Source of the DNA: Candidatus Omnitrophota bacterium
Lineage (GTDB): Bacteria > Omnitrophota > Gorgyraeia > Gygaellales > Profunditerraquicolaceae
Assembly: GCA_043800555.1 (NCBI GenBank)
Contig: JAZDMX010000003.1
Span: 175,531 to 239,530 of the forward strand
Direction of reading: 5' to 3'
Length of the DNA stretch: 64,000 nucleotides
The notes beneath the pieces are model-generated. The model ran no database searches and was not told the origin of the DNA. It worked only from the letters and a program-made list of their open reading frames with translations. A program made the translations under genes and the position numbers. This document shows, piece by piece, positions 1 through 17,506 of this stretch. Every line of letters begins with the position of its first letter. Position 1 is the first letter of the stretch.

Positions 1-1
1 T

Positions 2-205
2 TACCTGGAATGGTTAAACAATGTCGATGTTTTAGTTGAAGACAGCGAAGAAAATATCCTCCAGGCCAAAGAATTAGGGCTAAAAGGGATATTGGTAGCC
101 AAACCCTGGAACAAAAGCGGTTTATCGATTAAAGCGGCTTTGGCGCAAATAAATAAAATCATTGAGGAAGAGCCGGTTCTTTTGTTGCCGAAAGCAAAAC
201 GGTAA
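2..205 (+). CDS. C-terminal fragment of a HAD-superfamily hydrolase (NT5C/5'-nucleotidase-like); the 5' end lies upstream of the window
   Basis: Frame 2 is open from the window edge to TAA at 203-205. It reads ...VLVEDSEENILQAKELGLKGILVAKPWNKSGLSIKAALAQINKI..., typical of a HAD C-terminal cap/core. Confidence 0.35.
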   Translation, partial: YLEWLNNVDVLVEDSEENILQAKELGLKGILVAKPWNKSGLSIKAALAQINKIIEEEPVLLLPKAKR

Positions 206-227
206 AGTTATCCGGGTAAATAACGCT

Positions 228-2027
228 ATGGTTAAATTGTCCGATTATGTAATGCAGTATATCGCCGATTTAGGCGTGAAGAATGTTTTTATGCTCCCCG
301 GGGGCGGCTGTATGCACCTGGTGGATTCCTTGGGCCAAAACAAGAAATTAAAGTTTATCGTTAATTTGCATGAGCAGGCTTGCGCGATTGCCGCCGACGC
401 TTATAGCCAATATACCGGGAATCTCGGCGTAGCTTTAGTTACTACCGGGCCCGGAGGTACCAACGCGATTACCGGAGTGTGCGCTTCCTGGATCGAATCT
501 AGCCCTGTTTTGATTATTTCGGGCCAAGTCAAGAGGGCGGATTTAATGGCTGGCAAGGGGGTCCGTCAAATAGGCCCGCAGGAGATAGATATCGTTACCT
601 TGGTTAAACCGGTTACCAAATATGCGGTTACCGTTATGGACCCTAAAGACATAAGATACCATTTGGATAAGGCTGTTTATTTGGCCAAAGAAGCGAGGAT
701 GGGCCCGGTTTGGCTGGATATACCGTTGGATGTCCAGGGGGCGATTATCGATGAAGGTAAATTAAGAAAATTCATCAAGCCGAAACCGGTTAACCGGGAA
801 AAGGGCCTGGATAATAAGATTAACCGGCTAATAAAATTAATTAATCAATCTCATAGGCCGGTTATCTTAGCCGGTAACGGCATTAGGCTGGCCGGGGGAA
901 TTAGCCAATTCCGGAAATTGATAAAGCTGGCAAAAATCCCGGTATTAACCACTTGGAGGTTTCTGGATGTCTTAGGCCAAGACCACCGTTTATATGCCGG
1001 CAGGCCGGGTTCTATAGGGCAAAGAGGGGCAAATTTCGCGCAGCAAAATGCGGATTTGATAATTTGCATCGGGGCAAGGTTGGATGTGGCGCAAGCCGCC
1101 TATAACTATGATAATTTTGCCAGGAAAGCCAAGAAAATAATTGTCGATATCGATGAGCATGAAATAGGCAAAATACCCGTTAAAATCGATATGAAATTCA
1201 ATATGGACGCCGCGATGTTCTTAACCGCATTTTTAGCTAAGGCCAGCCGTATAAGATTAGATACCGGAAAGTGGCTGAACAGGTGCCGGGCCTGGAATAA
1301 GAAATACCCGGTTACCTTAGCCGAATTTAAACCAGAAAAGAAATACGTTAATACTTATGTGTTGGTTGACGCTTTGTCTGATGCCCTGGCTAAAGATGAC
1401 GTGATTGTCCCGGGCAGCTCCGGCAGCTGCAGCGAGATAACCATGCAGGCGTTTAAGGTTAAGCAGGGGCAGAGAATATTTAATTCTCCGGGGTTAGGCT
1501 CGATGGGGTTTGGCCTTCCGGCTAGTATTGGGGCTTGTTTTGCCAGCGGCAAGAAGCGGACTATTTGCCTGGTGGGAGACGGAGGGTTACAGCATAATAT
1601 TCAGGAATTAGAATTATTAAAAAGGCACCAGCTGCCGGTTAAAGTATTCGTTTTAAATAATAATGCTTACGCTTCCATCAGGGCCACTCATCAAAAGTTC
1701 TTTAACGGGCGCCTGACTGGCTGCGATCCTTCTTCTGGCTTGACTTTGCCGGATACGGTAAAAATAGCAGGCGCCTACGGGATAAAAACCTTTAGATTGA
1801 AGAATCAGGATGGAATCGGCAGTAAGATTAAAGAGGTTCTTGATTATGACGGGCCTGCGGTATGCGAGGTCATGGTCAATCCGGATTTGCTGACTCAACC
1901 TAAAGTGTCGTCGGAGGCTAAGCCGGATGGCCGGATGGTTTCTAAACCCATGGAAGACCTTTGGCCGTTTTTGGAGAGGAAAGAATTTAGGGCCAATATG
2001 ATTATAAGGCCTTTAGGGGCAAAATGA
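228..2027 (+). CDS. Thiamine-diphosphate-dependent enzyme of the acetolactate-synthase/YerE family; a candidate for attaching a two-carbon branch to an NDP-sugar
   Basis: ThDP-binding signature GDGG...(24)...NNN (LVGDGGLQHNIQ...VFVLNNNAYASI). The N-terminal pyrimidine-binding domain GGGCMHLVD is present. The track ORF begins at 162, but the first conserved residues start at the ATG at 228 (MVKLSDYVMQYIADLG). Confidence 0.8.
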   Translation: MVKLSDYVMQYIADLGVKNVFMLPGGGCMHLVDSLGQNKKLKFIVNLHEQACAIAADAYSQYTGNLGVALVTTGPGGTNAITGVCASWIESSPVLIISGQVKRADLMAGKGVRQIGPQEIDIVTLVKPVTKYAVTVMDPKDIRYHLDKAVYLAKEARMGPVWLDIPLDVQGAIIDEGKLRKFIKPKPVNREKGLDNKINRLIKLINQSHRPVILAGNGIRLAGGISQFRKLIKLAKIPVLTTWRFLDVLGQDHRLYAGRPGSIGQRGANFAQQNADLIICIGARLDVAQAAYNYDNFARKAKKIIVDIDEHEIGKIPVKIDMKFNMDAAMFLTAFLAKASRIRLDTGKWLNRCRAWNKKYPVTLAEFKPEKKYVNTYVLVDALSDALAKDDVIVPGSSGSCSEITMQAFKVKQGQRIFNSPGLGSMGFGLPASIGACFASGKKRTICLVGDGGLQHNIQELELLKRHQLPVKVFVLNNNAYASIRATHQKFFNGRLTGCDPSSGLTLPDTVKIAGAYGIKTFRLKNQDGIGSKIKEVLDYDGPAVCEVMVNPDLLTQPKVSSEAKPDGRMVSKPMEDLWPFLERKEFRANMIIRPLGAK

Positions 2028-2893
2028 AGATACTGATAACCGGTGGCAGCGGCTTTATCGCCAGGAACCTCTTTGAAGGCCTGGAGGCTGATTACGAAGT
2101 CATCTCGCGCAATAGCAAAGAGCTTGACCTTTTGGATGCCGAGAGAGTCTTTGACTATATCAAGTCCGGAAGTTTCGATGCGGTAATTCACGCTGCTACC
2201 TATGACGCCGCGCCAAGGTATTCCACGAAAGACCCGGCAAAAGTCCTGGAATATAATTTAAGGATGTTTTTTAACATCGCCAGGTGCGCAGATTCCTTCG
2301 GGAAGATGATCTACTTTGGTTCGGGCGCGGAGTTTTCCAGGGAAAATTGGGCGCCTAGGATGAAAGAGGCGTATTTTGACCGGCATATCCCCCGGGACCA
2401 GTATGGCTTCTCAAAATACGTGATGACTAAATACGCGCAGGTAGCCGGCAATATATACAATCTCAGGCTTTTTGGCGTATTCGGAAAATACGATGACTGG
2501 CGGACCCGCTTTATCCCTAATGCCTGCTCGCAAGCCGTTTTGGGATTACCCGTAATCATTAATCAAAACAGGTTTTTTGATTTTATTTACATCAAAGACC
2601 TGGTAAAAATCGTCAGATGGTTTATTGCCCATAAGCCGAAAGAGAAAATATATAATGTTTGCTCGGGGGAAGTAATTGATTTTAAATCTATAGGCGAAAT
2701 GATCGTTAAAACATCGAATAAGAAACTGGATATAATGGTTGAGTCCGATGGGTTGGCCAGGGAATATAGCGGGGATAACGCGCTGCTTTTGAAGGAATTG
2801 AACGGTTTTAAATTCAGCCCGATGGATGATTCCGTAAAAGAGCTGTACCATTGGTATGATCAGAACGCTTTAATTTTTAAAGATAAGAGATGA
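2024..2893 (+). CDS. NAD(P)-dependent epimerase/dehydratase (extended SDR); probably an NDP-sugar 4-reductase or epimerase
   Basis: N-terminal Rossmann motif ILITGGSGFIARNL. ATGA overlap with the upstream gene. Length 289 aa. Confidence 0.8.
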   Translation: MKILITGGSGFIARNLFEGLEADYEVISRNSKELDLLDAERVFDYIKSGSFDAVIHAATYDAAPRYSTKDPAKVLEYNLRMFFNIARCADSFGKMIYFGSGAEFSRENWAPRMKEAYFDRHIPRDQYGFSKYVMTKYAQVAGNIYNLRLFGVFGKYDDWRTRFIPNACSQAVLGLPVIINQNRFFDFIYIKDLVKIVRWFIAHKPKEKIYNVCSGEVIDFKSIGEMIVKTSNKKLDIMVESDGLAREYSGDNALLLKELNGFKFSPMDDSVKELYHWYDQNALIFKDKR

Positions 2894-3951
2894 CTCAAGA
2901 GGCCAGCGGCGTGCCCGGGAACATTAAGAAGGTATCGTTAGTAAAGGGGAAGAATAGTTACGATAATATCAAGCGGTCTTTGGATCTTATCAGGCCGGAT
3001 TTAGATGGCATAAAGGGCAAGAAAAATATCCTTCTAAAGCCTAATTTGACCGCCACTAAAAACAGGTTTGCGAATACTGACGCAAGATCCGTGGAGGCGG
3101 TTTTAGATTTCCTGCTGGATAATTTTCCTCAACTGCGCCAAAGCGAGTTTACGATACTGGAGGGCAGCGGAAGCGCTTTTTACGAAAAAACAACTACCCG
3201 GGAAGTTTTCAGGAAATTCGGTTATTTAGATTTATGCAAGAAATACAAGAATGTGAAGTGCGAATTCATCGAAGATTTCAAGGATTTCTCCGAGATACAG
3301 ATTATGTCTATCGCCGGGCATGAGAAAATAAAAGTTATAAGCCGTTTTCTGGACTTTGATTTCCGGGTGTCGGTTGCCGTGCCGAAGACGCATAACTATG
3401 CGATTGCCACCTTTGGGATAAAGAATATGGCGGGTTTGATTAAACAGGAGGACAAATCCATGTTGCACGGGTTGCGCACACCCAGCGCCCCCAACGCGAA
3501 AACGGTATTTACCTATTTGCCGACATCCTGGATTTCCTGGTTACGGCGAAAATCTCCGGATTTAGCCAATTTTATTTTCAAAAAATCAATCGCTTATCTC
3601 AAGGCGACAAAAGTCATCCATCATAATATTGCCGAATTGGCAAAATTTACCTGGCCGGACCTTGTGGTGCTGGATGGATTTTGCTGTATGGACGGTAACG
3701 GCCCGGTGGACGGTTTCCCTGTAAATTTGGAGGCTGCCGTGAGTTCTACCGATCCCCTTAAAGCAGACGGTATCGGCGCCAGGCTGTTGGGGATTGAGCC
3801 GGAAGATATCGGGTATCTTTATTATCTTCAGGAGGCCGGTTTGGGCAGCTATTCCTTGGATGGCCTCCGGGGAGACAAATTGGAAGAAGTCAGGCAAAAC
3901 TTTAAGCTGCATCCGACATACAGTATCCAAAAGAAATGGAAGGATAATTAA
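2890..3951 (+). CDS. DUF362 family protein (predicted Fe-S/redox-associated protein)
   Basis: Characteristic ILLKPNL motif and overall DUF362-like composition. Translationally coupled to the upstream gene. Confidence 0.55.
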   Translation: MTQEASGVPGNIKKVSLVKGKNSYDNIKRSLDLIRPDLDGIKGKKNILLKPNLTATKNRFANTDARSVEAVLDFLLDNFPQLRQSEFTILEGSGSAFYEKTTTREVFRKFGYLDLCKKYKNVKCEFIEDFKDFSEIQIMSIAGHEKIKVISRFLDFDFRVSVAVPKTHNYAIATFGIKNMAGLIKQEDKSMLHGLRTPSAPNAKTVFTYLPTSWISWLRRKSPDLANFIFKKSIAYLKATKVIHHNIAELAKFTWPDLVVLDGFCCMDGNGPVDGFPVNLEAAVSSTDPLKADGIGARLLGIEPEDIGYLYYLQEAGLGSYSLDGLRGDKLEEVRQNFKLHPTYSIQKKWKDN

Positions 3952-4000
3952 TCCTGGCGCAGGAGAAATCAGCCGGTCATGAGCTGAGGAGGCCGTTTAT

Positions 4001-5137
4001 ATGGTAATCAATAACTGCAGGCTATGCGGCAATGAATTTTTCCCCAACCCTCTGTTGCGTTATGAGAATATGCCTAAGTCTGCCCAGTTTTTGCCCGATT
4101 CTTCCTCAATCGGAAGCGACAAAGGGGTTAGCCTGGAGGTTTGCCAGTGCTCCGGATGCGGGTTGGCGCAGTTAAATAGCGCCCCTGTCCCTTATTATAA
4201 AGAAGTAATCCGGGCGGTTGGTTTTTCCGAAGAAATGAAACAGTTCCGGAGAAATCAATTCGCCGGTTTAATCAAGAAATATGCCCTTAAAGGCAAGAAG
4301 ATTATTGAGATAGGCTGCGGGAGAGGGGAGTACCTTTCTATCTTGGGAAAATTAGGCGTAGATGCCTATGGCTTGGAGTATTCCGAAGAAGCGCGAAAGG
4401 ACTGCGTCAATAGCGGGCTTAGAGTTTCAAAGGGTTTTGTTGATAGAGGCGATTGCGCCTTAAAAGAGGGGCCGTTTGAGGCGTTCTTTATCTTAAGTTT
4501 TCTTGAACATCTGCCGGATTTAAACGGGGCGCTTAGAGGTATCTATAATAATCTGGTTGAACATTCGGTTGGGCTGGTCGAAGTCCCGAATTTTGATATG
4601 ATCTTACGCAACAATCTTTTTTCCGAATTCATAAGCGACCACCTTTTTTATTTTACCAGGCAAACTTTAAAAACCGCCTTGGAGCTGAACGGATTTGAAG
4701 TCATGCAATGTAAAGAGATTTGGAATGATTATATAATTTCCGCGGTCGTTAAGAAGAAAGTCGCGTTGGATATAGCGCATTTTTATGAATTCCAGGCAAA
4801 GCTTAAGGCTGAAATCGAGGCATACATCCTTCGTTTTAAGGATCAGGGGGTAGCTATCTGGGGCGCCGGGCATCAAGCCCTGGCAGTTATTTCCTTGGCC
4901 GGTTTATCCGGAAAGATAAAATATGTCGTCGATTCAGCCACTTTTAAGCAAGGTAAGTTCACTCCGGCTACGCACATCCGGATAGTTCCTCCGAGCGCGC
5001 TTAAGGAAGACCCCGTAGGCGCGATTATTGTGATGGCTGCCAGCTATTCGGATGAAGTTGCCCGGATCATCCTCAAGAAGTTCGGCAGAAGGATGCGGGT
5101 TTGCGTATTGAGGGATTTTAGGTTAGAAGATGCCTGA
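4001..5137 (+). CDS. NDP-hexose C-methyltransferase (TylC3-like): N-terminal Zn-ribbon, class I SAM methyltransferase core and C-methyltransferase C-terminal domain
   Basis: Zn-ribbon CRLCGNEF...CQCSGCGLAQ. SAM motif IIEIGCGRGEY. C-terminal Rossmann region VAIWGAGHQALAVISLAGLSGKIKYVVDSATFKQGKF. Confidence 0.8.
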   Translation: MVINNCRLCGNEFFPNPLLRYENMPKSAQFLPDSSSIGSDKGVSLEVCQCSGCGLAQLNSAPVPYYKEVIRAVGFSEEMKQFRRNQFAGLIKKYALKGKKIIEIGCGRGEYLSILGKLGVDAYGLEYSEEARKDCVNSGLRVSKGFVDRGDCALKEGPFEAFFILSFLEHLPDLNGALRGIYNNLVEHSVGLVEVPNFDMILRNNLFSEFISDHLFYFTRQTLKTALELNGFEVMQCKEIWNDYIISAVVKKKVALDIAHFYEFQAKLKAEIEAYILRFKDQGVAIWGAGHQALAVISLAGLSGKIKYVVDSATFKQGKFTPATHIRIVPPSALKEDPVGAIIVMAASYSDEVARIILKKFGRRMRVCVLRDFRLEDA

Positions 5138-5660
5138 AGATTTGGTAAGCGTTATAGTCCCTGTGTATAACAGCGAGCAATTCCTTTGCCGTTGCCTGGA
5201 TAGCGTTATCGGCCAGGAGTATAGGAATATCGAAGTTGTGCTTGTAAATGACGGCTCAACCGATAAGAGCGCGGAATTATGCGAGTGCTATGCGCGCAGG
5301 GATAAAAGGGTCAAGCTGATACATAGTAAAAATAACGGGCCGGCGCAAGCCAGAAATATCGGAATTGAGAATGCGGTCGGAGATTTCATATTTTTTGTTG
5401 ATTCCGATGATTTTATCGAAAATAACGCGTTAAGCGTATTGATTGATAATTACAGAAGGACAAACGCGGACGTAATCATCGGGGATGCCCGCAGCGTTAA
5501 AGACGGTATTTTAGGCCCCGGGTATAAAGGCTGTTTTTTAGAGACCAAGCTATTAGTAAGGCAGGAAATAGCCGATTACGCCAGGCAGTATTTAAAAAAG
5601 CCGAACAGATTCACGTTATTTGCCTATTCCTGGGAAGGTTATTTAAATCTTCTACCCTAA
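5130..5660 (+). CDS. Family 2 glycosyltransferase, N-terminal part of an interrupted gene
   Basis: GT2 N-terminus VSVIVPVYNSEQFL...VVLVNDGSTDKS with DXD motif FFVDSDDF. The ORF ends at 5660 in the middle of the GT2 fold. Confidence 0.75.
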   Translation: MPEDLVSVIVPVYNSEQFLCRCLDSVIGQEYRNIEVVLVNDGSTDKSAELCECYARRDKRVKLIHSKNNGPAQARNIGIENAVGDFIFFVDSDDFIENNALSVLIDNYRRTNADVIIGDARSVKDGILGPGYKGCFLETKLLVRQEIADYARQYLKKPNRFTLFAYSWEGYLNLLP

Positions 5661-5671
5661 AGAATAACCAT

Positions 5672-6187
5672 GTGTTTTTTAACACCGATTTGCATACATT
5701 TGAAGATGTGGCCTTTAATTTTGATTACTTAAACTACGCGGAAAAAGTATTGTTCTTGAAAGAGCCCGTATACAACCATTTGCTCCACAATAATTATCTG
5801 TCGGCGACCATGGCGGTATCGGACAAGCCTATGGCTTTATGCGGGTATAGGCAGGCCCTTTATAATATAGGCGAATTCCTTAGGCGGGCCAATTCCGGGG
5901 CGGACGTAATCAGGGAAACCGGGCATGCGTTTGTTTGCTTGACTATAATTCAATTAGTCCGCGCCTGCGGGCAGATTAATAACGCAAACAGGCACAAGAT
6001 TACCGGGTTTATCCGCGAATTAATTAACGACCCGGAACTTAAGAAAAACCTGGGTTATTATGCCCCTTCAAGCGGCGATAGCAGGGTCCTTCCTTTTTTA
6101 ATGAGGTTTAAGCTTGTATGGTTGATCGTTTTGGTTTCTAGGTATAAGGCCGGAAAAAGGTACAAAAAGGCAGGCGTTATTAAATGA
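5672..6187 (+). CDS. Family 2 glycosyltransferase, C-terminal part; continuous with 5130..5660 after a -1 frame change
   Basis: The -1 frame is open from 5528 and reads ...SSTLKNNHVFFNTDLHTFEDVAFNFDY..., a typical GT2 C-terminal half. The track places a GTG start at 5672. Confidence 0.65.
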   Translation: MFFNTDLHTFEDVAFNFDYLNYAEKVLFLKEPVYNHLLHNNYLSATMAVSDKPMALCGYRQALYNIGEFLRRANSGADVIRETGHAFVCLTIIQLVRACGQINNANRHKITGFIRELINDPELKKNLGYYAPSSGDSRVLPFLMRFKLVWLIVLVSRYKAGKRYKKAGVIK

Positions 6188-7419
6188 ATTTTATGAAGGC
6201 TTTATCGGGAGAAGAAATTATTGAGCGCATTAAGGCAGCGGGGGCGCCGGTAATAATATTCGGCGCCGGGGTTGCCGGGGAGGCGCTCTATTATGCCTGC
6301 CTTGAGGCGGGAATCAAGATCGCCTCTTTTTGCGACAATAATATCAATAAGGTTAAATTCCGCCTATGCGATACAAAAGTGGTCCATACCCGGGATTTAA
6401 AAGCGCGATATAAAGATGCCTTGTTCTTGATATCTGCTGCCGATATCCAGGACGTGATTAGCCAATTGCGGGATTTAGGGCTATCCAAGTGGTACCCAGC
6501 TAGCCCGTTATTGAGGGGTTTTGACGCACATCGGCATAAATTCAGCGCCCCTTTGGATTTTGTCGAATACGCGGTAGCTACTTGCATCCTATGCCAGGAG
6601 AGTTATTTAGACCCGGATAAGCTGTTTTTAAGGAGCCTGGACATTATTGTTACGGAGCGTTGTTCCCTGAAGTGCGTTAATTGTTCCAACCTTATGCAGT
6701 ATTACGGCAAGCCCGTTGATTGCGGTATCAATGAATTAATGCTGTCTATCGGCAGGTTTTGTGATATTATCGATGAGATTAACGAATTCCGGGTGATCGG
6801 CGGAGAGCCGTTTATGAATAAGGATTTTCATTTAATCGTCAAGAGGCTGGTTGATGAGCCTAAGGCCAAAAAAGTGGTTGTTTATACCAATGGCACAATC
6901 GTCCCCGCTGCGGGCCAGATGGAGCCTTTAAAGAGCGAAAAGGTGCTTTTTATTATTACCGATTACGGCAAGTTATCGAGAAACTTAGATAGCCTGGCAA
7001 GCGCCTTGAAACAAAACAGGATAGCTTATTACGTGCAGAAGGCCCAGGGATGGACTGATTGCGCTAAGATTATAGAGCACCATCGCACCGAAAAAGAGCA
7101 GAAAGAATTATTTAGAAACTGTTGCGCCAAGAATACTTTTACTTTGTCTGACGCTAAATTGTACAGGTGCCCGTTTTCCGCCAATTGCGACAGGCTCCGG
7201 GCGGTTCCCGCGCAGGAAGATGATTCTGTGGATATTTTTCGGTATTCGGGAGAAGGAAAAGATACGCTAGAAGCGAAAAACAGGATCAGGGCCTTTTTAA
7301 CGCAGAAGCAATACCTTGGGGCATGCGATTATTGCAATGGCAGGCCGTTTACGGCATCCGAAATAACTCCTGCTGTTCAAACGCCTAAGCCCTTAGAGTA
7401 CGATATCAAACAAAAATGA
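6184..7419 (+). CDS. Radical SAM / SPASM-domain enzyme with an N-terminal C-methyltransferase-type NDP-sugar-binding Rossmann domain
   Basis: CX3CX2C motif CSLKCVNC. C-terminal Cys-rich SPASM/twitch region (YRCPFSANCDRL...CDYCNGRP). N-terminal VIIFGAGVAGEALYYACLEAGIKIASFCDNNINKVKF resembles the PF08484-like domain of 4001..5137. Confidence 0.8.
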   Translation: MNFMKALSGEEIIERIKAAGAPVIIFGAGVAGEALYYACLEAGIKIASFCDNNINKVKFRLCDTKVVHTRDLKARYKDALFLISAADIQDVISQLRDLGLSKWYPASPLLRGFDAHRHKFSAPLDFVEYAVATCILCQESYLDPDKLFLRSLDIIVTERCSLKCVNCSNLMQYYGKPVDCGINELMLSIGRFCDIIDEINEFRVIGGEPFMNKDFHLIVKRLVDEPKAKKVVVYTNGTIVPAAGQMEPLKSEKVLFIITDYGKLSRNLDSLASALKQNRIAYYVQKAQGWTDCAKIIEHHRTEKEQKELFRNCCAKNTFTLSDAKLYRCPFSANCDRLRAVPAQEDDSVDIFRYSGEGKDTLEAKNRIRAFLTQKQYLGACDYCNGRPFTASEITPAVQTPKPLEYDIKQK

Positions 7420-9242
7420 GAAAGAAGCTGAATTATCTTTTGGTGATGCCGCGCTTGGTCCAGAATATCGGAGACGGTTATTCGTTTCCGCTGGGCATCG
7501 CCTATATATCATCGAGCATGAAAAAGGCAGGCTATAACGTTTGGGCGGTTAATCTGAACCACCGGCAGGGAGAGATTGACCGGTTAATCAGGGATGCCAT
7601 CCAGGAGCATAAAATAGATGTCGTGGCTACGGGAGGCTTGTCGTTCCAATACAATACGGTCAAAATGGTAATTGAAGCAGCTAAGCGCGCCAAGGGACAG
7701 GTCATTACTATTGTCGGAGGGGGAATAATCTCCGGTGATCCCGGGCCGGCCATGGAGGCCTTGGAATACGCGGATTACGGGGTTATCGGAGAAGGAGAGG
7801 TTACTATAAATGAATTATGCCGGGCGCTTGAGTCTGGCGAAGAACCCGGTAAGGTTGACGGAATAATTTACAGGAAGGGCAACGCTTTCAAGACGACAAT
7901 GCCCCGTCGGGAGATAGAGAATATCGATTCCATGCCCCTCCCGGATTATCAGGGCTTTGAGATTGAGAAATATTTATCCTCCGCGCCCCCGGGCATAAGC
8001 GGGTTAAACAAACAAAATACCGTTTTTATGCTCGCCAGCCGTTCCTGCCCGTATAATTGCACGTTTTGTTTCCACACTACCGGCAGGAAATACCGCCAGA
8101 GGTCATTGGATAGTTTTTTTGAAGAACTTGATTATATGGTTTCCAAATATAATATCGAATTCGTATGTTTGGCTGACGAGCTTTTTGCCCGCAACATTAA
8201 AAGGGTAAGGGAATTCTGCGAAAGAATTAAGAAGTACGATATTAGATGGTGGGCGCAATTCAGGGTAGACGACATAACCCCGGAGTTATTGAATATCCTT
8301 AAAGATGGCAGGTGCGAGGTTATGTCGTTTGGCCTGGAGAGCGCGGATAACCGCGTGTTGAAAAGCATGCGTAAGGGGACTACGGTGGAGCAGATCGAGC
8401 GGACGCTCAAGCTTGTTTATGATTCCGGGATATCCTTTGAAGGGGCATTTATATTCGGCGATATCGCCGAGACCCCGGAAACCGCCGCTAATACCCTTGA
8501 CTGGTGGCGCCGGCATTCCGAATACAGGATCACCTTGAACCTGATTACGGTATATCCGGGTTCATATCTTTATAAATACGCCTGCCAGAATAAGATTATC
8601 AAGGATAGGGCCCGGTTTTTAAAGGAAGGATGCCCGCAGATAAATGTCTCTAAGCTTACGGACCAGGAACTCTCCGGATTAATCAAGCATTTTATGGATG
8701 CCCCGGTGAGCCTGACCAAGCCGCTTGCCTCGGCAAGCCTTAAAGGTATCGATTATAAAACCGGCAGGATCGGCATAAATGGCCTATGCACGCTTTGCAA
8801 GCAGGAGAATGATTGGGAGAATATAAAACTTTTTACCATGAATTTTCTTTCTTGTAAGGGCTGCGGCCAGAAATACAACGTCCCGTTTATCGAAAGCCTC
8901 CGGCTGAATATAGAAAAGAATATAACGGGTTTATTGAATAAATACGGTAAGGTGGCGGTGTGGGGGATAAATTACCATACCGTTGATTTGTTCAAGAATT
9001 CCGTAGCCCTAAAGGACAAAAACATATATCCGGTTGATATCTCGGAAACAAAACGGAAGATGGATTTGTTCGGGAAGAAGATTCACCCTCCTGAAATTAT
9101 AGACGCCGAGGATATCAGGGTAGTGGTCATTCCGGTTCCGGTATATTTTACGCAGATCAAATCGCAAATTGAATCAAGCCATAAAAATGTTGCGGATATA
9201 ATCGATATCTGCAGGCTCACTGACCCCGGTTATAAGCTATAA
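7416..9242 (+). CDS. Cobalamin-binding (class B) radical SAM enzyme fused to a Zn-ribbon and a C-methyltransferase C-terminal-like domain
   Basis: B12-binding domain (VVATGG...GEGE). rSAM motif CPYNCTFC. Zn-ribbon CTLCKQEN...CKGCGQKYN. C-terminal VAVWGINYHTVDLF...YPVDISETKRKMDLFGKK aligns with the C-terminus of 4001..5137. Confidence 0.85.
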   Translation: MRKKLNYLLVMPRLVQNIGDGYSFPLGIAYISSSMKKAGYNVWAVNLNHRQGEIDRLIRDAIQEHKIDVVATGGLSFQYNTVKMVIEAAKRAKGQVITIVGGGIISGDPGPAMEALEYADYGVIGEGEVTINELCRALESGEEPGKVDGIIYRKGNAFKTTMPRREIENIDSMPLPDYQGFEIEKYLSSAPPGISGLNKQNTVFMLASRSCPYNCTFCFHTTGRKYRQRSLDSFFEELDYMVSKYNIEFVCLADELFARNIKRVREFCERIKKYDIRWWAQFRVDDITPELLNILKDGRCEVMSFGLESADNRVLKSMRKGTTVEQIERTLKLVYDSGISFEGAFIFGDIAETPETAANTLDWWRRHSEYRITLNLITVYPGSYLYKYACQNKIIKDRARFLKEGCPQINVSKLTDQELSGLIKHFMDAPVSLTKPLASASLKGIDYKTGRIGINGLCTLCKQENDWENIKLFTMNFLSCKGCGQKYNVPFIESLRLNIEKNITGLLNKYGKVAVWGINYHTVDLFKNSVALKDKNIYPVDISETKRKMDLFGKKIHPPEIIDAEDIRVVVIPVPVYFTQIKSQIESSHKNVADIIDICRLTDPGYKL

Positions 9243-9269
9243 GCGAAAAACTCAAAAACGAGGCCGAAA

Positions 9270-9767
9270 TTGAAAATCAAGGGAATAGTTAAGGAGTTAG
9301 AGGCCCGCATTAAGGACCCGGCAAAGGGCCTGCCGGAAGAAGTTTTCCTTTTTATGAGCAGGATCACGCCTTTGGTTAACGTGGACCTGTTGATCAAGAA
9401 TAAACGAAAACAGACGCTATTGACCTGGAGAGACGACGGTTATTTCCCCGCCGGTTGGCATATCCCGGGAGGCATAGTCAGGTATAAGGAACCGATAGCG
9501 CGGAGGATTAAAGCTGTTGCTGCCGCGGAATTAGGGGCCAAGGTCAGATGCAGCGCTACCCCTTTACTAATCCGGGAAGTCGTGATCCCGGCATTAAGAA
9601 ACCGGGCCCACGCTATTTCGTTTCTATACGAGTGTTCATTGGCCAGCCTGCCTGCAAAGGGGCTTATGTATGCCGGAGGTTGTCCGAAACAGGGGCAATG
9701 GGCCTGGCATGAAAAATGCCCCAAAGATTTAATTTCTGTCCACCGGATGTACCGGAGGTTCATATGA
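9270..9767 (+). CDS. gmm: NUDIX hydrolase of the GDP-mannose mannosyl hydrolase (Gmm/WcaH) type
   Basis: ITPLVNVDLLIKNKRKQTLLTWRDDGYFPAGWHIPGGIVRYKEPIARRIKAVAAAELG aligns with the E. coli Gmm N-terminal region. The canonical NUDIX-box glutamates are only partly retained. Confidence 0.65.
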   Translation: MKIKGIVKELEARIKDPAKGLPEEVFLFMSRITPLVNVDLLIKNKRKQTLLTWRDDGYFPAGWHIPGGIVRYKEPIARRIKAVAAAELGAKVRCSATPLLIREVVIPALRNRAHAISFLYECSLASLPAKGLMYAGGCPKQGQWAWHEKCPKDLISVHRMYRRFI

Positions 9768-11587
9768 AAAATAACGGGGTTAAGCTTAACTTTTTGCTCG
9801 TAATGCCCCGGCTTGTGCAGAGTATCGGCGACGGGTATGTTTTCCCTCTGGGAGTGGCCTACGTCTCTTCGAGCATGAAAAAGGCGGGGTTTCGTGTTTT
9901 CACGTTGAACCTTAACCACCGCCAGGGGGAGGTTTTCGAAATTATCCAAAAGGCGGTCAAGGAGCACGGTATAGACGTAGTTGCTACCGGAGGGCTTTCT
10001 CCTCAATACCACTTGGTTAAAAGCGTTATAGAGTCGGCGAAAAAGGCCGATAGCCGGATTGTTACTATTGTCGGAGGCGGGATTATTTCTTCCGACCCGG
10101 AAACCGCCATAGAAGCGCTGGAATTTGCCGATTTTGGCGTAATCGGCGAGGGAGAAGCGACTATGTGCGAATTGGCTTCTTGCCTGGAAGCCAAAGGGGA
10201 TTTCTCCAAGGTTGACGGGCTTATCTATAAAGAAGGCCAAGGGTATAAGAAGACAAACTCCCGTAAGGACATCGAGGATATCAGCAGCATCCCCTGGCCG
10301 GATTACGAAGGGTTTGATGTTGAGCAATATCTTGAAACTCCATCAGCCGGGTTCGCCGGGATAAATAAAAAACGGGTGATTTGCATGTTAGGGAGCCGTT
10401 CCTGCCCTTTTAATTGCACTTTTTGCTGCCATACGATCGGTAAGAAATTCCGCCGTCGCTCACTGGATGATTTTTTTGCCGAACTGGATTATTTGGTTTC
10501 CCGTTATAGGATAGAATATGTTTCCATGGCCGATGAGGTATTTGCCCCGGATTTAGCCAGCGCCAAGGAATTTTGCGGCCGCATAAAGAAATATAGTATT
10601 TCCTGGTATGCTGATTTCAGGATCGACAAGGTCAAGCCGGAACTTCTCGGGCTCCTTAAGGAAAGCGGGCTGGAAGTGATGTTTTTCGGCATAGAGAGCG
10701 CGGATAACCGGATCCTTAAGAGTATGCGCAAGGGTATCACTATTGAGCAGATTGAAAAGGTCCTGAAAATGGTATATGAATCCGGAATCGCCAGCTACGG
10801 TTGTTTTATTTTCGGAGATATCGCCGAAACGCTTGAAACTGCCCAGAATACCCTGAATTGGTGGAAGAAGCATAGGGAGTACGCGGTGCATCTTACCCTG
10901 GTTAAGCCGTTTCCGGGCTCTTATATTTATCAATATGCCTGCCAGAAAGGCATTATCAAAGACCGGATCCAATACCTTAAGGATGGCTGCCCGCAGGTGA
11001 ATATTTCCCTGATGGATGATAAGGAATTCGCCTATATCGTGCGCCAAATATCGGAATCCTTGGGCCTGATGGATGCCTTGGGCTCGGTAGAGCTCTTAGG
11101 CCTTGACCCCTTGATGGGCAGAGAAACGATATCCGGGACCTGCGCTAAGTGTTCGCAAAGAAATATCTGGGAAAACATAAAGCTATTCTCTATCGATTAT
11201 ATTTATTGCAGCCATTGCGGGCAGAAATACGAGATCCCTAACCCTCCCCAGCTTAGGGCAAACCTGGACAGGAATATATCCGCATTATTGAGGAAATACG
11301 GCAAGGTCGCTATCTGGGGGATGACCCTTTCGGTTATGGACCTCTTTAAGCATTCAAGAATACTCGCCGATCCCAATGTTTTTCCTATCGATATCTCCGA
11401 GAGCAAGAGAAAAACGGATTTTTTCGGTAAAATAATTTATGCCCCGGATATCTTAGGCGCAGAGAATATTCCGGTTGTGGTAATTGCCGTCCCCTCGCAT
11501 GGCGGGCAAATATCCTGCCAGGTCAAGGAAAACCATCCGGGGGTAACGGAAATAATCGACATTTGCCAATTAGTCGGGTTCAACTAG
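9764..11587 (+). CDS. Cobalamin-binding radical SAM enzyme fused to a Zn-ribbon and a C-methyltransferase C-terminal-like domain (tandem paralog of 7416..9242)
   Basis: ATGA overlap with gmm. The start ATG is at 9764 (MKNNGVKLNFLLVMPRLVQSIGDGY). rSAM motif CPFNCTFC. Zn-ribbon CAKCSQRN...CSHCGQKYE. C-terminal VAIWGMTLSVMDLF...FPIDISESKRK. Confidence 0.85.
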   Translation: MKNNGVKLNFLLVMPRLVQSIGDGYVFPLGVAYVSSSMKKAGFRVFTLNLNHRQGEVFEIIQKAVKEHGIDVVATGGLSPQYHLVKSVIESAKKADSRIVTIVGGGIISSDPETAIEALEFADFGVIGEGEATMCELASCLEAKGDFSKVDGLIYKEGQGYKKTNSRKDIEDISSIPWPDYEGFDVEQYLETPSAGFAGINKKRVICMLGSRSCPFNCTFCCHTIGKKFRRRSLDDFFAELDYLVSRYRIEYVSMADEVFAPDLASAKEFCGRIKKYSISWYADFRIDKVKPELLGLLKESGLEVMFFGIESADNRILKSMRKGITIEQIEKVLKMVYESGIASYGCFIFGDIAETLETAQNTLNWWKKHREYAVHLTLVKPFPGSYIYQYACQKGIIKDRIQYLKDGCPQVNISLMDDKEFAYIVRQISESLGLMDALGSVELLGLDPLMGRETISGTCAKCSQRNIWENIKLFSIDYIYCSHCGQKYEIPNPPQLRANLDRNISALLRKYGKVAIWGMTLSVMDLFKHSRILADPNVFPIDISESKRKTDFFGKIIYAPDILGAENIPVVVIAVPSHGGQISCQVKENHPGVTEIIDICQLVGFN

Positions 11588-11599
11588 AAAGAGGATAGT

Positions 11600-12667
11600 A
11601 TGGCCGCTCAACACAGAATAAAGGCAAGCGAAATTGCGAAACGGGAACAACTCAAAAGGCAAAAACCTTATGTCTATGAGAAAATCATGAAGTATGACGA
11701 AAAAGTAAAGAACGGGGAAAGTATCGCCATACTTCAGTTCCAGTATGATTACGCCTGTAATTTCGCCTGCCAGCATTGTGATATAACCCGCTTACGGGGG
11801 AAAAACAAAAGCAGGTTTTTTACAATTAGCGACGTAAAGGAACTTTCCCGGCAAGCCGATGAAATGGGCCTGGCGCATATCGTCGTAACCGGAGGGGAGC
11901 CGCTGGTTTTCCCGGATTTCGACGCTATCGTTAAAGCGATTGACCCGCAGAAGTTCTATATTACTTCGGATACCAATGGCTGGTTTTTGGATGCCGCCAG
12001 AGCCAGGCATTTAAAAAATATCGGCCTGGATAAAATCCAGCTTAGCCTGGATAGCCTCTCGGCTGCCGAACATGATGCGTTCCGGCGCAAACCCGGCTCT
12101 CACCAGAGGGCCCTTAAGGCAATTGACGCTTCTTTGGATGCGGGATTAAATATTATATTAGCTACCGTAGTTACGAAGCAGAGAATCAGGTCGGAGGAAT
12201 TTATTGAGTTCTTGGAATTTGCCAAGAAAAAAGGCGTAGCGGTATTCGTGACTTACGCTAAGCCTGTCGGAGAGTGGGAAGCTAACTTCGATGTCTTGGT
12301 TACAAAAAGCGATATGGATTATTTGAGGGGGCTGGAGGGGCAATATAATGTTTTTACGCATTTGACTCCTTCCTACGGCCTTGATTTAGGCTGCATAGCG
12401 GTCAAAAGAATGGTTTCTATCACTAAATACGGGGACCTGATGCCTTGCCCTTATATCCACGTTTCGTTAGGGAATTTTTTTGAGGAACCGTTAAAGGATA
12501 TTATCGAAAGGGGCTTAAAGATCAGGTTTTTCGGCAAGCATCTGGATACCTGCCTGATAGCCGAAGACAGGGAATTTATCAGCGAGTATGAAACTAAGAA
12601 GATCTACGGCAAGCCTCTGCCGGTCCCTTATGCCGAGGTGTTTACAAAGAATGATTTTATTGATTAA
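11600..12667 (+). CDS. Radical SAM enzyme (non-B12), possibly with a partial twitch/SPASM C-terminus
   Basis: CX3CX2C motif CNFACQHC. GGEPLVFPDF glycine-rich SAM-binding motif. A good SD (AAGAGGA) precedes the ATG. Confidence 0.8.
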   Translation: MAAQHRIKASEIAKREQLKRQKPYVYEKIMKYDEKVKNGESIAILQFQYDYACNFACQHCDITRLRGKNKSRFFTISDVKELSRQADEMGLAHIVVTGGEPLVFPDFDAIVKAIDPQKFYITSDTNGWFLDAARARHLKNIGLDKIQLSLDSLSAAEHDAFRRKPGSHQRALKAIDASLDAGLNIILATVVTKQRIRSEEFIEFLEFAKKKGVAVFVTYAKPVGEWEANFDVLVTKSDMDYLRGLEGQYNVFTHLTPSYGLDLGCIAVKRMVSITKYGDLMPCPYIHVSLGNFFEEPLKDIIERGLKIRFFGKHLDTCLIAEDREFISEYETKKIYGKPLPVPYAEVFTKNDFID

Positions 12668-13978
12668 ATGAAAAACAAGATCAAAGGGAAAATATTTAAA
12701 TTAATCAAGGAATTGTATAAGGCCCAAGCGGGAAGAAAAGAATTTGTCCCCGGCAAAGGGGCAATTAATTACGGCGGCAGGATCTATGATTCCAAAGAGC
12801 TGATAAATCTAGTTGATGCATCGCTTGATTTTTGGCTTACTGCCGGAAACTACGCCCGGGAATTTGAAGGGAAGCTCTCAGGCTTTCTGGGCGTTAAATA
12901 TTGTTTATTGGCTAATTCCGGCTCATCCGCTAACCTTTTGGCCTTAACCGCGTTAACTTCACCGTTGTTAAAAGAAAAGCGGTTAAAGCCGGGTGACGAA
13001 GTAATCACCACTGCCTGCGGTTTTCCTACCACCCTGAACCCGATACTGCAGAATAACCTTGTGCCCGTATTTATTGATGTAGAGCTGGGCAACTATAATA
13101 TTCAGGCAGAGAAGATCGAAAAGGCTATCACCAGGCAAACAAGGGCGATCTTTACCGCCCATACCCTGGGTAACCCGGTAAACATAGATATAGTCAGGAA
13201 AATAGTTAAAAAGCATAATTTGTACTGGGTTGAGGATAATTGCGATAGCCTTGGGTCCAAATATAGGGGTAGCTATACCGGGACATTCGGGGATATTTCC
13301 ACTTGCAGCTTCTATCCTCCTCACCATATAACTATGGGAGAAGGAGGGGCGGTTTTAACAAACAACCCGCTATTTAAAAGGATTGTAATGTCTTTGCGGG
13401 ACTGGGGAAGGGATTGCTGGTGCGAGCCGGGCCAGGACAATACTTGTAAGAAAAGATTCAGCCGGAAATTCGGCCCGTTGCCTTACGGCTATGACCACAA
13501 ATATGTTTATTCCCATATAGGCTATAATTTAAGAGTTACCGATATGCAGGCGGCTGTCGGCTGCGCGCAGTTAGAGAAATTGCCCGGATTTATTGAAGCC
13601 AGGAAACGCAATTTTAAGTTTCTATACGGTATGCTTAAGGAACACGGCGATCATTTTATCCTGCCGCAGGCGCAGGAACATTCCGATCCCAGCTGGTTTG
13701 GTTTTTCGATCCTTCTAAAAGATACGGCACCGTTTAATAGGGCGGATATTGTTAGTTATTTGGAAGGCAGGAAGATAGCCACGAGAATGCTCTTCGGGGG
13801 TAACTTATTGAAGCAACCGGCCTATAAAAACATAAAATACAGGGTGGCGGGAAATTTAAGGAATACGGATTTGGTAATGAACAACCTTTTTTGGATAGGG
13901 GTCTACCCCGGGCTTACCGGCCCCATGCTTGATTATATAGGAAAGTCCTGGGATGCTTTTCTTAAAAAGGCAAAATGA
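12668..13978 (+). CDS. rfbH: NDP-4-keto-6-deoxyhexose 3-dehydrase (RfbH/DdhC/E1 family, PMP-dependent and [2Fe-2S]-containing)
   Basis: Near full-length alignment to Salmonella RfbH: CLLANSGSSANLLALTALTSP, SFYPPHHITMGEGG (His replaces the aminotransferase Lys), and the Fe-S motif DCWCEPGQDNTCKKRF (C-x-C-x7-C retained). Confidence 0.9.
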   Translation: MKNKIKGKIFKLIKELYKAQAGRKEFVPGKGAINYGGRIYDSKELINLVDASLDFWLTAGNYAREFEGKLSGFLGVKYCLLANSGSSANLLALTALTSPLLKEKRLKPGDEVITTACGFPTTLNPILQNNLVPVFIDVELGNYNIQAEKIEKAITRQTRAIFTAHTLGNPVNIDIVRKIVKKHNLYWVEDNCDSLGSKYRGSYTGTFGDISTCSFYPPHHITMGEGGAVLTNNPLFKRIVMSLRDWGRDCWCEPGQDNTCKKRFSRKFGPLPYGYDHKYVYSHIGYNLRVTDMQAAVGCAQLEKLPGFIEARKRNFKFLYGMLKEHGDHFILPQAQEHSDPSWFGFSILLKDTAPFNRADIVSYLEGRKIATRMLFGGNLLKQPAYKNIKYRVAGNLRNTDLVMNNLFWIGVYPGLTGPMLDYIGKSWDAFLKKAK

Positions 13979-14670
13979 AGCTGACCATACTTATAAGCTG
14001 TTTTAATGAGAAAGCGACCATCCTTAAGGCAATCGAGGAGGCCAAAGCCGTTAAGGCCGATAAAGAGATAATTGTCATAGATAATTGTTCGACAGACGGC
14101 ACAAGGCAGATATTGGAGTCGATAAATGCCGATAGCGGCATAAAAATAATATTTAACGCCAGGAATATGGGGGCCGGATATTCCGGCCGCCAGGGCATCC
14201 AGCTTGCCCGGGGAGATTATTTCTACGCTCCCGGAGCCGACCTGGAATATAAAATGGCCGATGTTTGCGGTATGTTGCAAAAAGCCGAGAGCGAGAACCT
14301 GGATGTAGTTTTCGGCTCAAGGCTTTTGGATAAGAAAGATGTCTCCCGGCTGCGTTTAATCAAGCAAAGGCCGTATTGGCTGGGGACGATCATCGCGACA
14401 TTTTTGATAAATGTATTATTCCGCAAGAATTTTACCGATGTCATCGGGACGCATTTGATCAAAACAGGTATTTTAAAGGGATTGGATTGTAGTTCTAGCG
14501 GCCAGTCTTTTATATTCGAATTGGTAAGCAAGTTTTGCAAGAAAAGTTATAAAATAGGGGAAATTAATGTCTGGTATAAGCCCAGGACGCACAAGGAAGG
14601 TAAAACCATCAGGGCGCTTGATATGGCCCCGGCTTTATTAGCTATCTTCCGGGTCAAAATATTTGGTTAG
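13975..14670 (+). CDS. Family 2 glycosyltransferase, polyprenyl-phosphate sugar synthase type (DPM1/ArnC/GtrB-like)
   Basis: KLTILISCFNEKATI...IVIDNCSTDGT. ATGA overlap with rfbH. Confidence 0.8.
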   Translation: MKLTILISCFNEKATILKAIEEAKAVKADKEIIVIDNCSTDGTRQILESINADSGIKIIFNARNMGAGYSGRQGIQLARGDYFYAPGADLEYKMADVCGMLQKAESENLDVVFGSRLLDKKDVSRLRLIKQRPYWLGTIIATFLINVLFRKNFTDVIGTHLIKTGILKGLDCSSSGQSFIFELVSKFCKKSYKIGEINVWYKPRTHKEGKTIRALDMAPALLAIFRVKIFG

Positions 14671-14676
14671 GCAAAT

Positions 14677-16764: not shown

Positions 16765-16774
16765 CGTAAGGCCG

Positions 16775-17506
16775 ATGGGGGAAATTGTCAATACCGGAGA
16801 ACGGATACTTTTGGAGCAAGAAACGCCTTTAATGGTCGCCCGCCATTTTTGCGCCTATAAATTTGCCAGGGATTTTGTCAAGGATAAGAGCGTTTTAGAC
16901 GCAGGCTGCGGAGAAGGCTATGGCTCGAATTTCTTGGCCGAATACGCCAAAGCGGTTTGGGGGCTCGATTACGATAAAGATATCATCATTTATGCGCAAG
17001 GTAAGTATAATAAGGTTAACCTGCAATTCCTGGCTTTAGATATCAAAGACCTTAGCAGCCTGCATAAGAAATTCGATGTAATATGTTCATTCCAGAATAT
17101 AGAACATATCCGGGATACGGGCAAGTTCTTAAATGACGCCTTGAGCCTGTTGAATGACGATGGCGTATTTATCTGTTCTACCTGTAATATGAAAGATGCT
17201 TCTCCCGGCAGGAAAGAGCCCTCCAATAGGTTCCATGTCAAAGAGTACCTTTTTGACGAGTTTAGAGGCTTGCTCCAGGGGCATTTTAAGAATGTAGAGA
17301 TCTTCGGTTTAAACAGGGGCTTGGCCTTAAAGGCCTTCCGCAGGCTGAAGAAAATCGGCTTGTTTAATTTCTTGCCGGAGAAAATCAATCCGGTTAAGAT
17401 ATTTTTTGCAAAAGCAGGGTGCGGGTATTTCTTTTGGTCCAGGATAAATCTGGATAATTGCCTGGATTTTCTTGCTGTCTGCAGGAAACAGGAGGCCATT
17501 TCTTAA
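16775..17506 (+). CDS. Class I SAM-dependent methyltransferase
   Basis: Motif I VLDAGCGEGYGSNFLA. Confidence 0.75.
   Translation: MGEIVNTGERILLEQETPLMVARHFCAYKFARDFVKDKSVLDAGCGEGYGSNFLAEYAKAVWGLDYDKDIIIYAQGKYNKVNLQFLALDIKDLSSLHKKFDVICSFQNIEHIRDTGKFLNDALSLLNDDGVFICSTCNMKDASPGRKEPSNRFHVKEYLFDEFRGLLQGHFKNVEIFGLNRGLALKAFRRLKKIGLFNFLPEKINPVKIFFAKAGCGYFFWSRINLDNCLDFLAVCRKQEAIS

Follow-up and report, generated by a model that had tools for sequence, protein, structure and literature searches.

Organisation of the gene array

We analysed a 64,000-nucleotide stretch of DNA (hereafter the window) from a Candidatus Omnitrophota bacterium (contig JAZDMX010000003.1, positions 175,531 to 239,530), and examined an array of genes at positions 228-14670 that probably directs the synthesis of a carbon-branched deoxysugar. 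The array opens with the gene of a thiamine diphosphate (ThDP)-dependent enzyme resembling the sugar carboligase YerE (228-2027) and, near its 3' end, encodes a 3-dehydrase of the E1/RfbH type (12668-13978), with four radical S-adenosylmethionine (radical-SAM) enzymes encoded between the two. The first-pass annotation of this DNA had described 14 contiguous, coupled + strand genes here. The strand and the tight packing were borne out, but the count was not: a listing of open reading frames (ORFs) combined with profile searches gave 12 genes in 13 ORFs, all on the + strand, tightly packed and uninterrupted. Both family 2 glycosyltransferase (GT2) genes, at 5130-6187 and 13975-14670, had been omitted. 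The profile searches placed the two anchoring proteins in the E1 and ThDP families, and the core observation stands.

Four junctions in the array are 4-nt ATGA overlaps and the other gaps measure 0-49 nt, which makes an operon organisation credible. Simple promoter and terminator scans of positions 1-20000 returned hits at chance level only. Across the window (1-64000) almost all long ORFs are + strand, and all 2-kb bins have a positive GC skew. The cluster had been taken to start at 228; however, positions 2-205 already hold the 3' end of another, preceding gene of the cassette, so that the 5' end of the operon is cut by the window start and the cluster begins before 228. The region is thus predicted to be the 3' two-thirds of a larger conserved cell-envelope sugar operon.

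For comparison we used 46 loci carrying a homologue of the ThDP enzyme (40-82% identity), obtained from a scan of one genome per species. Orthologues were counted at ≥35% identity and ≥50% coverage and, as many of the contigs are short, the counts given below are lower bounds.

A YerE-like ThDP enzyme with an adjoining candidate reductase

The ThDP enzyme (599 amino acids) matches the N, M and C domains of the TPP_enzyme families (PF02776, 114 bits; PF00205, 109 bits; PF02775, 129 bits), and carries a GDG-X24-NN motif at residue 450 as well as the catalytic glutamate in an HEQ motif. Its best matches in the PDB, over the full length, are JanthE (8rph; PMC12188165) at 401 bits and PpYerE (5ahk) at 298 bits, whereas structures of acetohydroxyacid synthase (AHAS) score at most 236 bits. 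The protein also falls below every acetolactate synthase equivalog cutoff (TIGR00118, 380 bits against a cutoff of 538), and we rejected a reading as a true AHAS on this ground. By this comparison, which runs through JanthE and PpYerE and not through the YerE of Yersinia pseudotuberculosis itself, the enzyme groups with YerE-like carboligases and not with acetolactate synthases, in agreement with its initial placement as a YerE-like member of the ThDP/AHAS family. JanthE and PpYerE share the catalytic glutamate with the window enzyme; in JanthE the ThDP motif reads CDG, in contrast to the canonical GDG found here (PMC12247030). The accompanying statement that YerE is the only ThDP enzyme with an established role in a sugar pathway is outdated, as ErwE, MMAR_2332 and MyGE have been assayed in vitro, the structure of JanthE has been solved, and in-silico work predicts over 200 clusters of the YerE-like kind (PMC9306805, PMC12247030).

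Directly downstream lies the gene of an extended short-chain dehydrogenase/reductase (SDR) of 289 amino acids (2024-2893; PF01370, 105 bits), which has GxxGxxG and YxxxK motifs and sits in the position of yerF. Orthologues at 40-68% identity directly follow the ThDP gene in 11/46 loci. Given its yerF-like position, we regard this SDR, already recognised in the first-pass annotation, as a candidate side-chain ketoreductase. The genetic linkage is that of the YerE-like class, with an E1 gene in the same operon and an SDR gene adjoining; RfbF and an RfbG-like protein are found in the relatives only.

The E1-type dehydrase

The 436-residue product of 12668-13978 exceeds the cutoff of the RfbH equivalog by a wide margin (NF011936, 703 bits against 423) and aligns without gaps to the Yersinia E1 enzyme (PDB 3bcx) at 543 bits. 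Its H219 and C192, C250, C252 and C260 align with H220 and C193, C251, C253 and C261 of the Yersinia protein, which we take to be, respectively, the histidine that replaces the pyridoxal phosphate-binding lysine at the pyridoxamine phosphate site and the four ligands of the [2Fe-2S] cluster. Because these residues are present, we rejected a reading of the protein as ColD-like or as an aminotransferase. The earlier E1/RfbH call agrees with these results, and the protein is predicted to be a bona fide E1/RfbH CDP-4-keto-6-deoxyglucose 3-dehydrase.

Radical-SAM enzymes

Five radical-SAM enzymes, two of them cobalamin-dependent, had been reported within 228-14670. We recovered both cobalamin-binding enzymes but only four radical-SAM enzymes in all, with a CX3CX2C motif and a radical-SAM domain encoded at 6184-7419, 7416-9242, 9764-11587 and 11600-12667; in the motif scan a fifth lies outside the region, at 17507-18904 (4+1 in total). 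This last protein (465 amino acids; PF02310 and PF04055, CX3CX2C at residue 195) had correctly been named as a third cobalamin-dependent enzyme. All three cobalamin (B12)-binding proteins have the CX3CX2C motif and match PF02310 (59-68 bits) and PF04055 (65-92 bits), and none reaches an NCBIfam equivalog cutoff.

The two large B12-binding enzymes are paralogues with 57% identity, and the third is just 24% identical to them; the two-paralogue arrangement recurs on at least 11 other contigs. The first of the pair (7416-9242; 608 amino acids, CX3CX2C at residue 211) finds its best PDB sequence matches in AprD4 (50 bits) and CysS (41 bits). For the second, the longest ORF runs from 9716, and an ATG at 9764, in an ATGA overlap with the stop codon of the preceding NUDIX gene, gives a protein of 607 amino acids; the deposited protein P0241 has this same length and is 100% identical. 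A CxxC-X18-CxxC motif, probably a zinc ribbon, is present in both (8787-8867, residues 458-483; 11189-11266, residues 476-501), within a C-terminal extension of about 200 residues for which no Pfam family gives a match.

The radical-SAM enzyme encoded at 6184-7419 (411 amino acids, hereafter rSAM411; PF04055, 32 bits) has its CX3CX2C motif at residue 160, behind a Rossmann-like N-terminal domain, and ends in a cysteine-rich C-terminus. The N-terminus matches PF08484, the C-terminal domain family of C-methyltransferases, weakly (15 bits, E = 0.02), and equally weakly in the orthologue of locus L055, a faint hint at nucleotide-sugar binding. The best PDB match is MoaA, at 24 bits. A GT2 gene precedes rSAM411 in the window, and the pair is kept in loci L019, L050 and L055.

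The protein encoded at 11600-12667 (355 amino acids) matches PF04055 at 87 bits and the SPASM family PF13186 at 23.2 bits, just above the cutoff of 21.5. It has six cysteines in total, at residues 53, 57 and 60 and at 265, 283 and 318, all of them invariant, and the three C-terminal ones fit a twitch domain rather than a full seven-cysteine SPASM domain. We therefore refer to it as the twitch enzyme. Among the radical-SAM enzymes of the cassette it is the most conserved, with 78-87% identity to its best 120 homologues in the database; the corresponding range of the ThDP enzyme is 60-82%. BlsE and MoaA are its best PDB sequence matches (57 bits), and an AlphaFold model (pLDDT 67) retrieved the same two proteins at the top of a Foldseek search with a TM-score of about 0.44, as generic radical-SAM folds. 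Neither homology nor fold assigns a specific function to any of the radical-SAM enzymes, and the prediction of a heavily C-alkylated product was, on this footing, a guess.

Predicted tailoring enzymes and glycosyltransferases

The remaining genes of the array encode a DUF362 protein, a C-methyltransferase, a NUDIX protein and the two GT2 enzymes. The DUF362 protein (2890-3951; 353 amino acids, PF04015 at 117 bits) was as first described; it has no orthologue in any of the 46 related loci and is specific to this window. The TylC3-type NDP-hexose C-methyltransferase (4001-5137; 378 amino acids) likewise agrees with the initial call, being a SAM methyltransferase (PF13489, 56 bits) with a PF08484 match of 50.9 bits, above the cutoff of 23.5. 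PF08421, the N-terminal zinc-finger domain of this enzyme type, was not reported for the window protein, in which an N-terminal Cys4 motif is visible, and the orthologues in L053 and L054 do match this family. The NUDIX protein (9270-9767; 165 amino acids) is Gmm-like only in a weak sense, and its degenerate sequence leaves the canonical Nudix box unmatched. Orthologues with 43-53% identity occur in 16/46 loci, usually beside the twitch enzyme.

The N-terminal half of the first GT2 (5130-6187) matches PF00535 at 135 bits. A single-base frameshift near 5633, in a run of G, splits the gene into two ORFs (5130-5660 and 5672-6187). Intact orthologues of 361 and 366 amino acids in L019 and L050, which always precede an orthologue of rSAM411, align to the two frames with a switch at 5633, and the window copy is a pseudogene unless the homopolymer was misassembled. 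The second, small GT2 (13975-14670; 231 amino acids, PF00535 at 93 bits) resembles polyprenyl-phosphate sugar synthases, with AglJ, PpgS and a dolichyl-phosphate hexose transferase as its best named matches. Its orthologues in L001 and L005 (60-65% identity) adjoin the E1 gene. Immediately downstream of the array lies the gene of a GT-C-type membrane glycosyltransferase of 695 amino acids (14677-16764), and the succession of a small GT2 and a GT-C enzyme suggests transfer of the sugar via a lipid carrier to an extracytoplasmic acceptor. A class I SAM methyltransferase (16775-17506; 243 amino acids, matching several methyltransferase families) follows; L001 has a 239-residue orthologue with 40% identity in the same position, and also a 465-residue B12-binding radical-SAM enzyme at the position matching 17507-18904.

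The upstream half of the operon in related loci

Positions 2-205 encode, in frame 2 on the + strand, the last 67 residues of an NT5C/HAD-like phosphatase that match the end of a 193-residue protein encoded directly before the ThDP gene in L001. This HAD protein (PF06941 NT5C, 21.7 bits) is itself preceded by a NeuB-cupin gene in the relatives. In L001, L003, L005, L054 and others the upstream order is a cytidylyltransferase, a dehydratase-like SDR, sometimes a hydrolase of metallo-beta-lactamase fold, the NeuB-cupin fusion and the HAD protein. The glucose-1-phosphate cytidylyltransferase (RfbF) of L001 scores 420 bits against TIGR02623 (cutoff 300), and the best match of its CDP-glucose 4,6-dehydratase-like SDR is TIGR02622, at 218 bits under a cutoff of 278. 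The fusion protein, of about 505 amino acids, joins a NeuB domain (PF03102, 147 bits) to a sugar-isomerase-like cupin (Lyx_isomer, 25.6 bits; MannoseP_isomer, weak). With respect to the equivalogs NeuB and PseI (136 and 129 bits) the NeuB domain remains under the cutoffs, and the fusion protein reaches the cutoff of no curated family. The fusion is encoded at 7880-9409 of L001 and is found also in L002-L006, L053, L054 and L056. By comparison with these loci, the donor-forming half of the operon (RfbF, RfbG-like, NeuB-cupin) is predicted to lie immediately before the window start; this half, including the HAD gene, had been missed previously.

Conservation of the cassette

The 46 loci belong to Omnitrophota, Nitrospirota, Planctomycetota, Desulfobacterota, Lentisphaerota (including Victivallis vadensis), Verrucomicrobiota, Bacteroidota, Saccharibacteria and Firmicutes, and to two archaeal metagenome-assembled genomes (MAGs). 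The gene found most often with the ThDP enzyme is the NeuB-cupin fusion (37/46 loci), followed by RfbF (28/46), HAD (27/46) and E1 (25/46). The twitch enzyme was present in 18/46 loci and the C-methyltransferase in 15/46, and the pair of large B12-binding enzymes (4/46) and rSAM411 with its GT2 (2/46) were found in far fewer. Synteny with the window is near-complete in L019, a Pirellulales MAG, which carries the SDR, the NUDIX protein, the C-methyltransferase, both large B12-binding enzymes, the intact GT2, rSAM411, the twitch enzyme and E1.

We also approached the cassette from the radical-SAM side. Look-ups anchored on the twitch enzyme (L053, Dissulfurispiraceae; L054, Saganbacteria) and on a B12-binding enzyme (L055, Alphaproteobacteria; L056) led to the ThDP/NeuB-cupin cassette in 4/4 cases; the C-methyltransferase is encoded in all four loci, and E1 in L054, L055 and L056, with no E1 visible within the flanks of L053. 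The same cassette, in more than 10 phyla, is thus reached from the ThDP enzyme, the twitch enzyme and the B12-binding enzymes alike, and we conclude that the radical-SAM genes belong to the pathway. On this conservation the twitch enzyme is classed as a core member of the predicted pathway, with the B12-binding pair and the GT2-rSAM411 pair as an accessory module.

Two of these loci have features of their own. L055 contains six radical-SAM genes, three of them for B12-binding proteins, and its SDR is fused to the C-methyltransferase (742 amino acids). In L056 (16272-21884) the neighbours of the cassette are a flagellin gene and a Leg/Pse-type cluster of the classical kind (NeuB-SAF, Epimerase_2, CTP_transf_3), a hint at possible flagellin decoration with the sugar in some lineages.

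A proposed pathway

The enzyme families, the active-site residues of E1 and the conserved gene linkage together point to an operon for a CDP-activated 3,6-dideoxyhexose that is carbon-branched at C4, of the yersiniose/erwiniose/caryophyllose class, tailored by radical-SAM enzymes and exported via polyprenyl phosphate. We consider this reading fairly probable. Published work on acyl-branched sugars describes a route in which the 4-hydroxy-2-keto acid formed by an aldolase is decarboxylated and attached at C4 of CDP-4-keto-3,6-dideoxyglucose by a YerE-like enzyme, after which a YerF-like reductase completes the branch (PMC9306805). The present cassette would fit this scheme with one substitution, a phosphoenolpyruvate (PEP)-dependent NeuB-cupin protein and a phosphatase taking over as the maker of the keto acid.

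We infer the donor acid, the order of the steps, every radical-SAM reaction and the acceptor as follows. The upstream cytidylyltransferase and CDP-glucose 4,6-dehydratase, as encoded in the relatives, would supply CDP-4-keto-6-deoxyglucose, from which E1 would remove the 3-hydroxyl group to give CDP-4-keto-3,6-dideoxyglucose. In parallel, the NeuB-cupin protein and the NT5C-like phosphatase would convert PEP and an aldose, which the Gmm-like NUDIX protein may release from a nucleotide sugar, into a 3-deoxy-2-keto acid; these three roles are proposed by analogy with the synthesis of nonulosonic acids and of 2-keto-3-deoxynononic acid (KDN). The YerE-like enzyme would then decarboxylate the keto acid and add the acyl anion to the C4 ketone, the SDR would reduce the side-chain ketone in the manner of YerF, and the TylC3-type enzyme would methylate a carbon adjoining a keto group. 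The twitch enzyme as the core catalyst, with the two paralogous B12-binding enzymes and rSAM411 as accessories, would carry out the radical tailoring of unactivated carbons. The most likely reaction of the B12-binding enzymes is C-methylation, probably at unactivated carbons of the side chain or the ring; that of the twitch enzyme is probably the oxidation, epimerisation or dehydration of the CDP-linked sugar. Finally, the small GT2 would attach the sugar to polyprenyl phosphate, from which the GT-C enzyme would transfer it to a cell-envelope acceptor.

More tentatively, we suggest that the product could be a new higher-carbon, C4-branched 3,6-dideoxyhexose whose NeuB-type, PEP-derived ulosonic side chain is rebuilt by radical chemistry, by the near-invariant twitch core and, in some lineages, by up to four to six radical-SAM enzymes. 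We regard this as possible rather than probable.

Several results weigh against the proposal of a C4-branched, radical-tailored sugar. The genes for the CDP-sugar and NeuB steps lie outside the window and were deduced from relatives whose ThDP enzymes are 55-82% identical. JanthE, the closest solved relative of the ThDP enzyme, has no known physiological substrate (PMC12188165). The radical-SAM enzymes resemble characterised ones just generically (24-57 bits; TM about 0.44), and one GT2 of the module is frameshifted. The NUDIX protein remains under both relevant cutoffs (PF00293, 19.2 against 21.1 bits; PRK15434, the Gmm family, 32.5 against 146), so that the former Gmm-like label stands as a weak match only, and the GT-C enzyme also falls short (PF13231 PMT_2, 23.4 against 26.1 bits). 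Furthermore, neither an E3 reductase of the DdhD/AscD type nor any protein with a Fer2, FAD_binding_6 or NAD_binding_1 domain was found in window ORFs 228-50256 or in the seven annotated relative loci, and a motif scan of all relative loci found no E3 reductase either. The lack of an E3 partner characterises this system and not the E1 family as such; the electrons for E1 would therefore come from a general ferredoxin or flavodoxin, for which SpnQ is a precedent.

The clustering itself could be explained differently. The locus may be a mosaic, in which the ThDP enzyme, the SDR and E1 make a simple yersiniose-like sugar and the radical-SAM enzymes, the C-methyltransferase and the NUDIX protein act on a second sugar, an assembled glycan, a lipid or a cofactor, their genes merely sharing a large envelope-polysaccharide locus. 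The window does contain a long run of envelope genes (several GT2, GT-C, Wzy_C, two GT9, ManC and a carbamoyltransferase), the radical-SAM content varies from locus to locus in its accessory parts, and the partner of rSAM411 is a glycosyltransferase, not a sugar-nucleotide enzyme. However, the radical-SAM genes are flanked by those of the ThDP enzyme and E1, start and stop codons overlap, the twitch enzyme is more conserved than the ThDP enzyme and co-occurs with it across phyla, and every look-up started from a radical-SAM gene returned the same cassette. We consider a mosaic unlikely.

Two further explanations concern the ThDP enzyme. It could be a plain 2-keto-acid decarboxylase that turns the NeuB product into a chain-extended 2-deoxy-aldose, with the E1 route leading separately to an unbranched 3,6-dideoxyhexose. 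Its gene is indeed linked most tightly to those of the NeuB-cupin and HAD proteins, more so than to E1, and the uncertain physiological substrate of its closest solved homologue would also accommodate such a role (PMC12188165). Against this, the nearest characterised relatives are ketone-accepting YerE-like carboligases (PMC12247030), E1 and RfbF are present wherever the flanks suffice, and the SDR occupies the yerF position, so that we find this decarboxylase quite improbable. An ordinary acetolactate synthase for branched-chain amino acids, standing in the cluster by coincidence, would match the public name of the homologues ('acetolactate synthase large subunit') and the best NCBIfam hit of the window protein itself, TIGR00118; yet this score lies below its cutoff, the protein is closer to YerE-like structures than to AHAS, and there is neither a small-subunit gene nor an ilv neighbour. 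This possibility is very remote. The branched-sugar pathway set out above remains our preferred interpretation.

Relation to known systems

One of the closest parallels is the ddhABCD-yerEF cluster of Yersinia pseudotuberculosis O:VI, which makes yersiniose A. Compared by family and gene position, and not through the sequences of YerE or YerF, the two share the CDP-glucose route, an E1 with the same histidine and cysteines, a YerE-type ThDP carboligase and an SDR directly downstream. Unlike the Yersinia cluster, the window operon has no E3 (ddhD), and has in addition a C-methyltransferase, a NUDIX protein and four or five radical-SAM genes; its donor is probably not pyruvate, because a NeuB-cupin/HAD pair is linked to it instead. 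The erwiniose (ErwE/F/I/J), caryophyllose (MMAR_2331-2333) and gastriose (MyGE/MygF/MygI) clusters follow the same logic of a keto-acid maker, a YerE-like enzyme and a reductase, and a cluster of R. palustris likewise carries a SAM methyltransferase (PMC9306805). In contrast to the present cassette, with its PEP-dependent NeuB domain, cupin and phosphatase, the published long-branch clusters use pyruvate aldolases, and no radical-SAM genes have been reported in them (PMC9306805).

The donor module of the cassette recalls nonulosonic acid and KDN synthesis (NeuB/PseI/LegI, NeuC/PseG and KDN-9-phosphate phosphatase). Both combine a NeuB-family, PEP-condensing enzyme, a phosphatase and an enzyme resembling nucleotide-sugar hydrolases around a 3-deoxy-2-keto acid; here, however, a cupin replaces the SAF domain, no CMP-activating enzyme is linked, and the keto acid would pass to the ThDP enzyme. 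The small polyprenyl-phosphate-synthase-like GT2 followed by a GT-C transferase resembles ArnC/ArnT and GtrB/GtrC, although the GT-C call in the window is just under the Pfam cutoff. Radical-SAM enzymes that act on sugar or nucleoside substrates are also known, in BlsE, AprD4, DesII and GenK/GenD1. The matches to BlsE (twitch enzyme) and AprD4 (first large B12-binding enzyme), at 50-57 bits, cover the radical-SAM core only and imply no orthology. The statement that known deoxysugar pathways use at most one radical-SAM enzyme was loose, as gentamicin biosynthesis uses both GenK and GenD1.

The claim that the gene content matches no characterised pathway agrees with our literature search, which found no paper linking YerE-type clusters to radical-SAM enzymes; the search did not extend to Krug et al. 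2024, where over 200 YerE-like clusters are surveyed in silico. Searches on Omnitrophota with radical-SAM and lipopolysaccharide, and on NeuB with thiamine and branched sugars, returned nothing relevant, nor did we find an earlier example of a single nucleotide-sugar operon with four or five radical-SAM genes. The system belongs to the known YerE-type branched-sugar clusters and is not a new kind; it is distinct through its NeuB-type donor module and its conserved radical-SAM core with optional B12-binding modules.

Branched 3,6-dideoxy sugars are rare surface antigens, of which a handful of pathways are understood. The pathway proposed here would extend the acyl-branched sugar scheme by a NeuB-type, PEP-dependent source of the donor and by radical-SAM tailoring of a nucleotide sugar. 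If the branch is indeed NeuB-derived and rebuilt by radical chemistry, the cassette would provide the first example of a nucleotide-sugar pathway that is rich in radical-SAM enzymes and serves a primary glycan of the cell envelope or flagellum. The cassette is represented by thousands of metagenomic proteins from more than 10 phyla and is widespread in uncultivated anaerobes (Omnitrophota, Nitrospirota, Planctomycetota, Desulfobacterota, Lentisphaerota and others), and is likely a common envelope feature of such organisms. The identity of the twitch enzyme across phyla makes it an attractive target for new radical sugar chemistry, and the ThDP enzymes are an addition to the available catalysts for tertiary alcohol formation. 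In Victivallis vadensis the minimal core is present, with the twitch enzyme among its members (L024, L030), which makes the prediction testable in a cultivable organism.

Genes downstream of the array

Positions 13975-26337, from the small GT2 onwards, form a dense envelope-glycan module. It comprises three small polyprenyl-phosphate-synthase-like GT2 enzymes, three or four GT-C-like membrane proteins, a Wzy_C ligase/polymerase, the methyltransferase with its B12-binding radical-SAM enzyme and a carbamoyltransferase, and is followed by two GT9 heptosyltransferase-like genes, ManC and a DegT aminotransferase. Further downstream, two tandem paralogues of the GalT/HIT family (DUF4921-like; 37821-38846 and 38848-39843), with 49% mutual identity, adjoin a glyceraldehyde-3-phosphate dehydrogenase gene. 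A 764-residue protein encoded at 41078-43372 combines membrane spans like those of the major facilitator superfamily with a spermine/spermidine-synthase domain. It was considered as an orthologue of a 793-residue protein of the L001 cassette, which has a weak Spermine_synth match, and rejected, the two sharing only 26% identity over about 100 residues.

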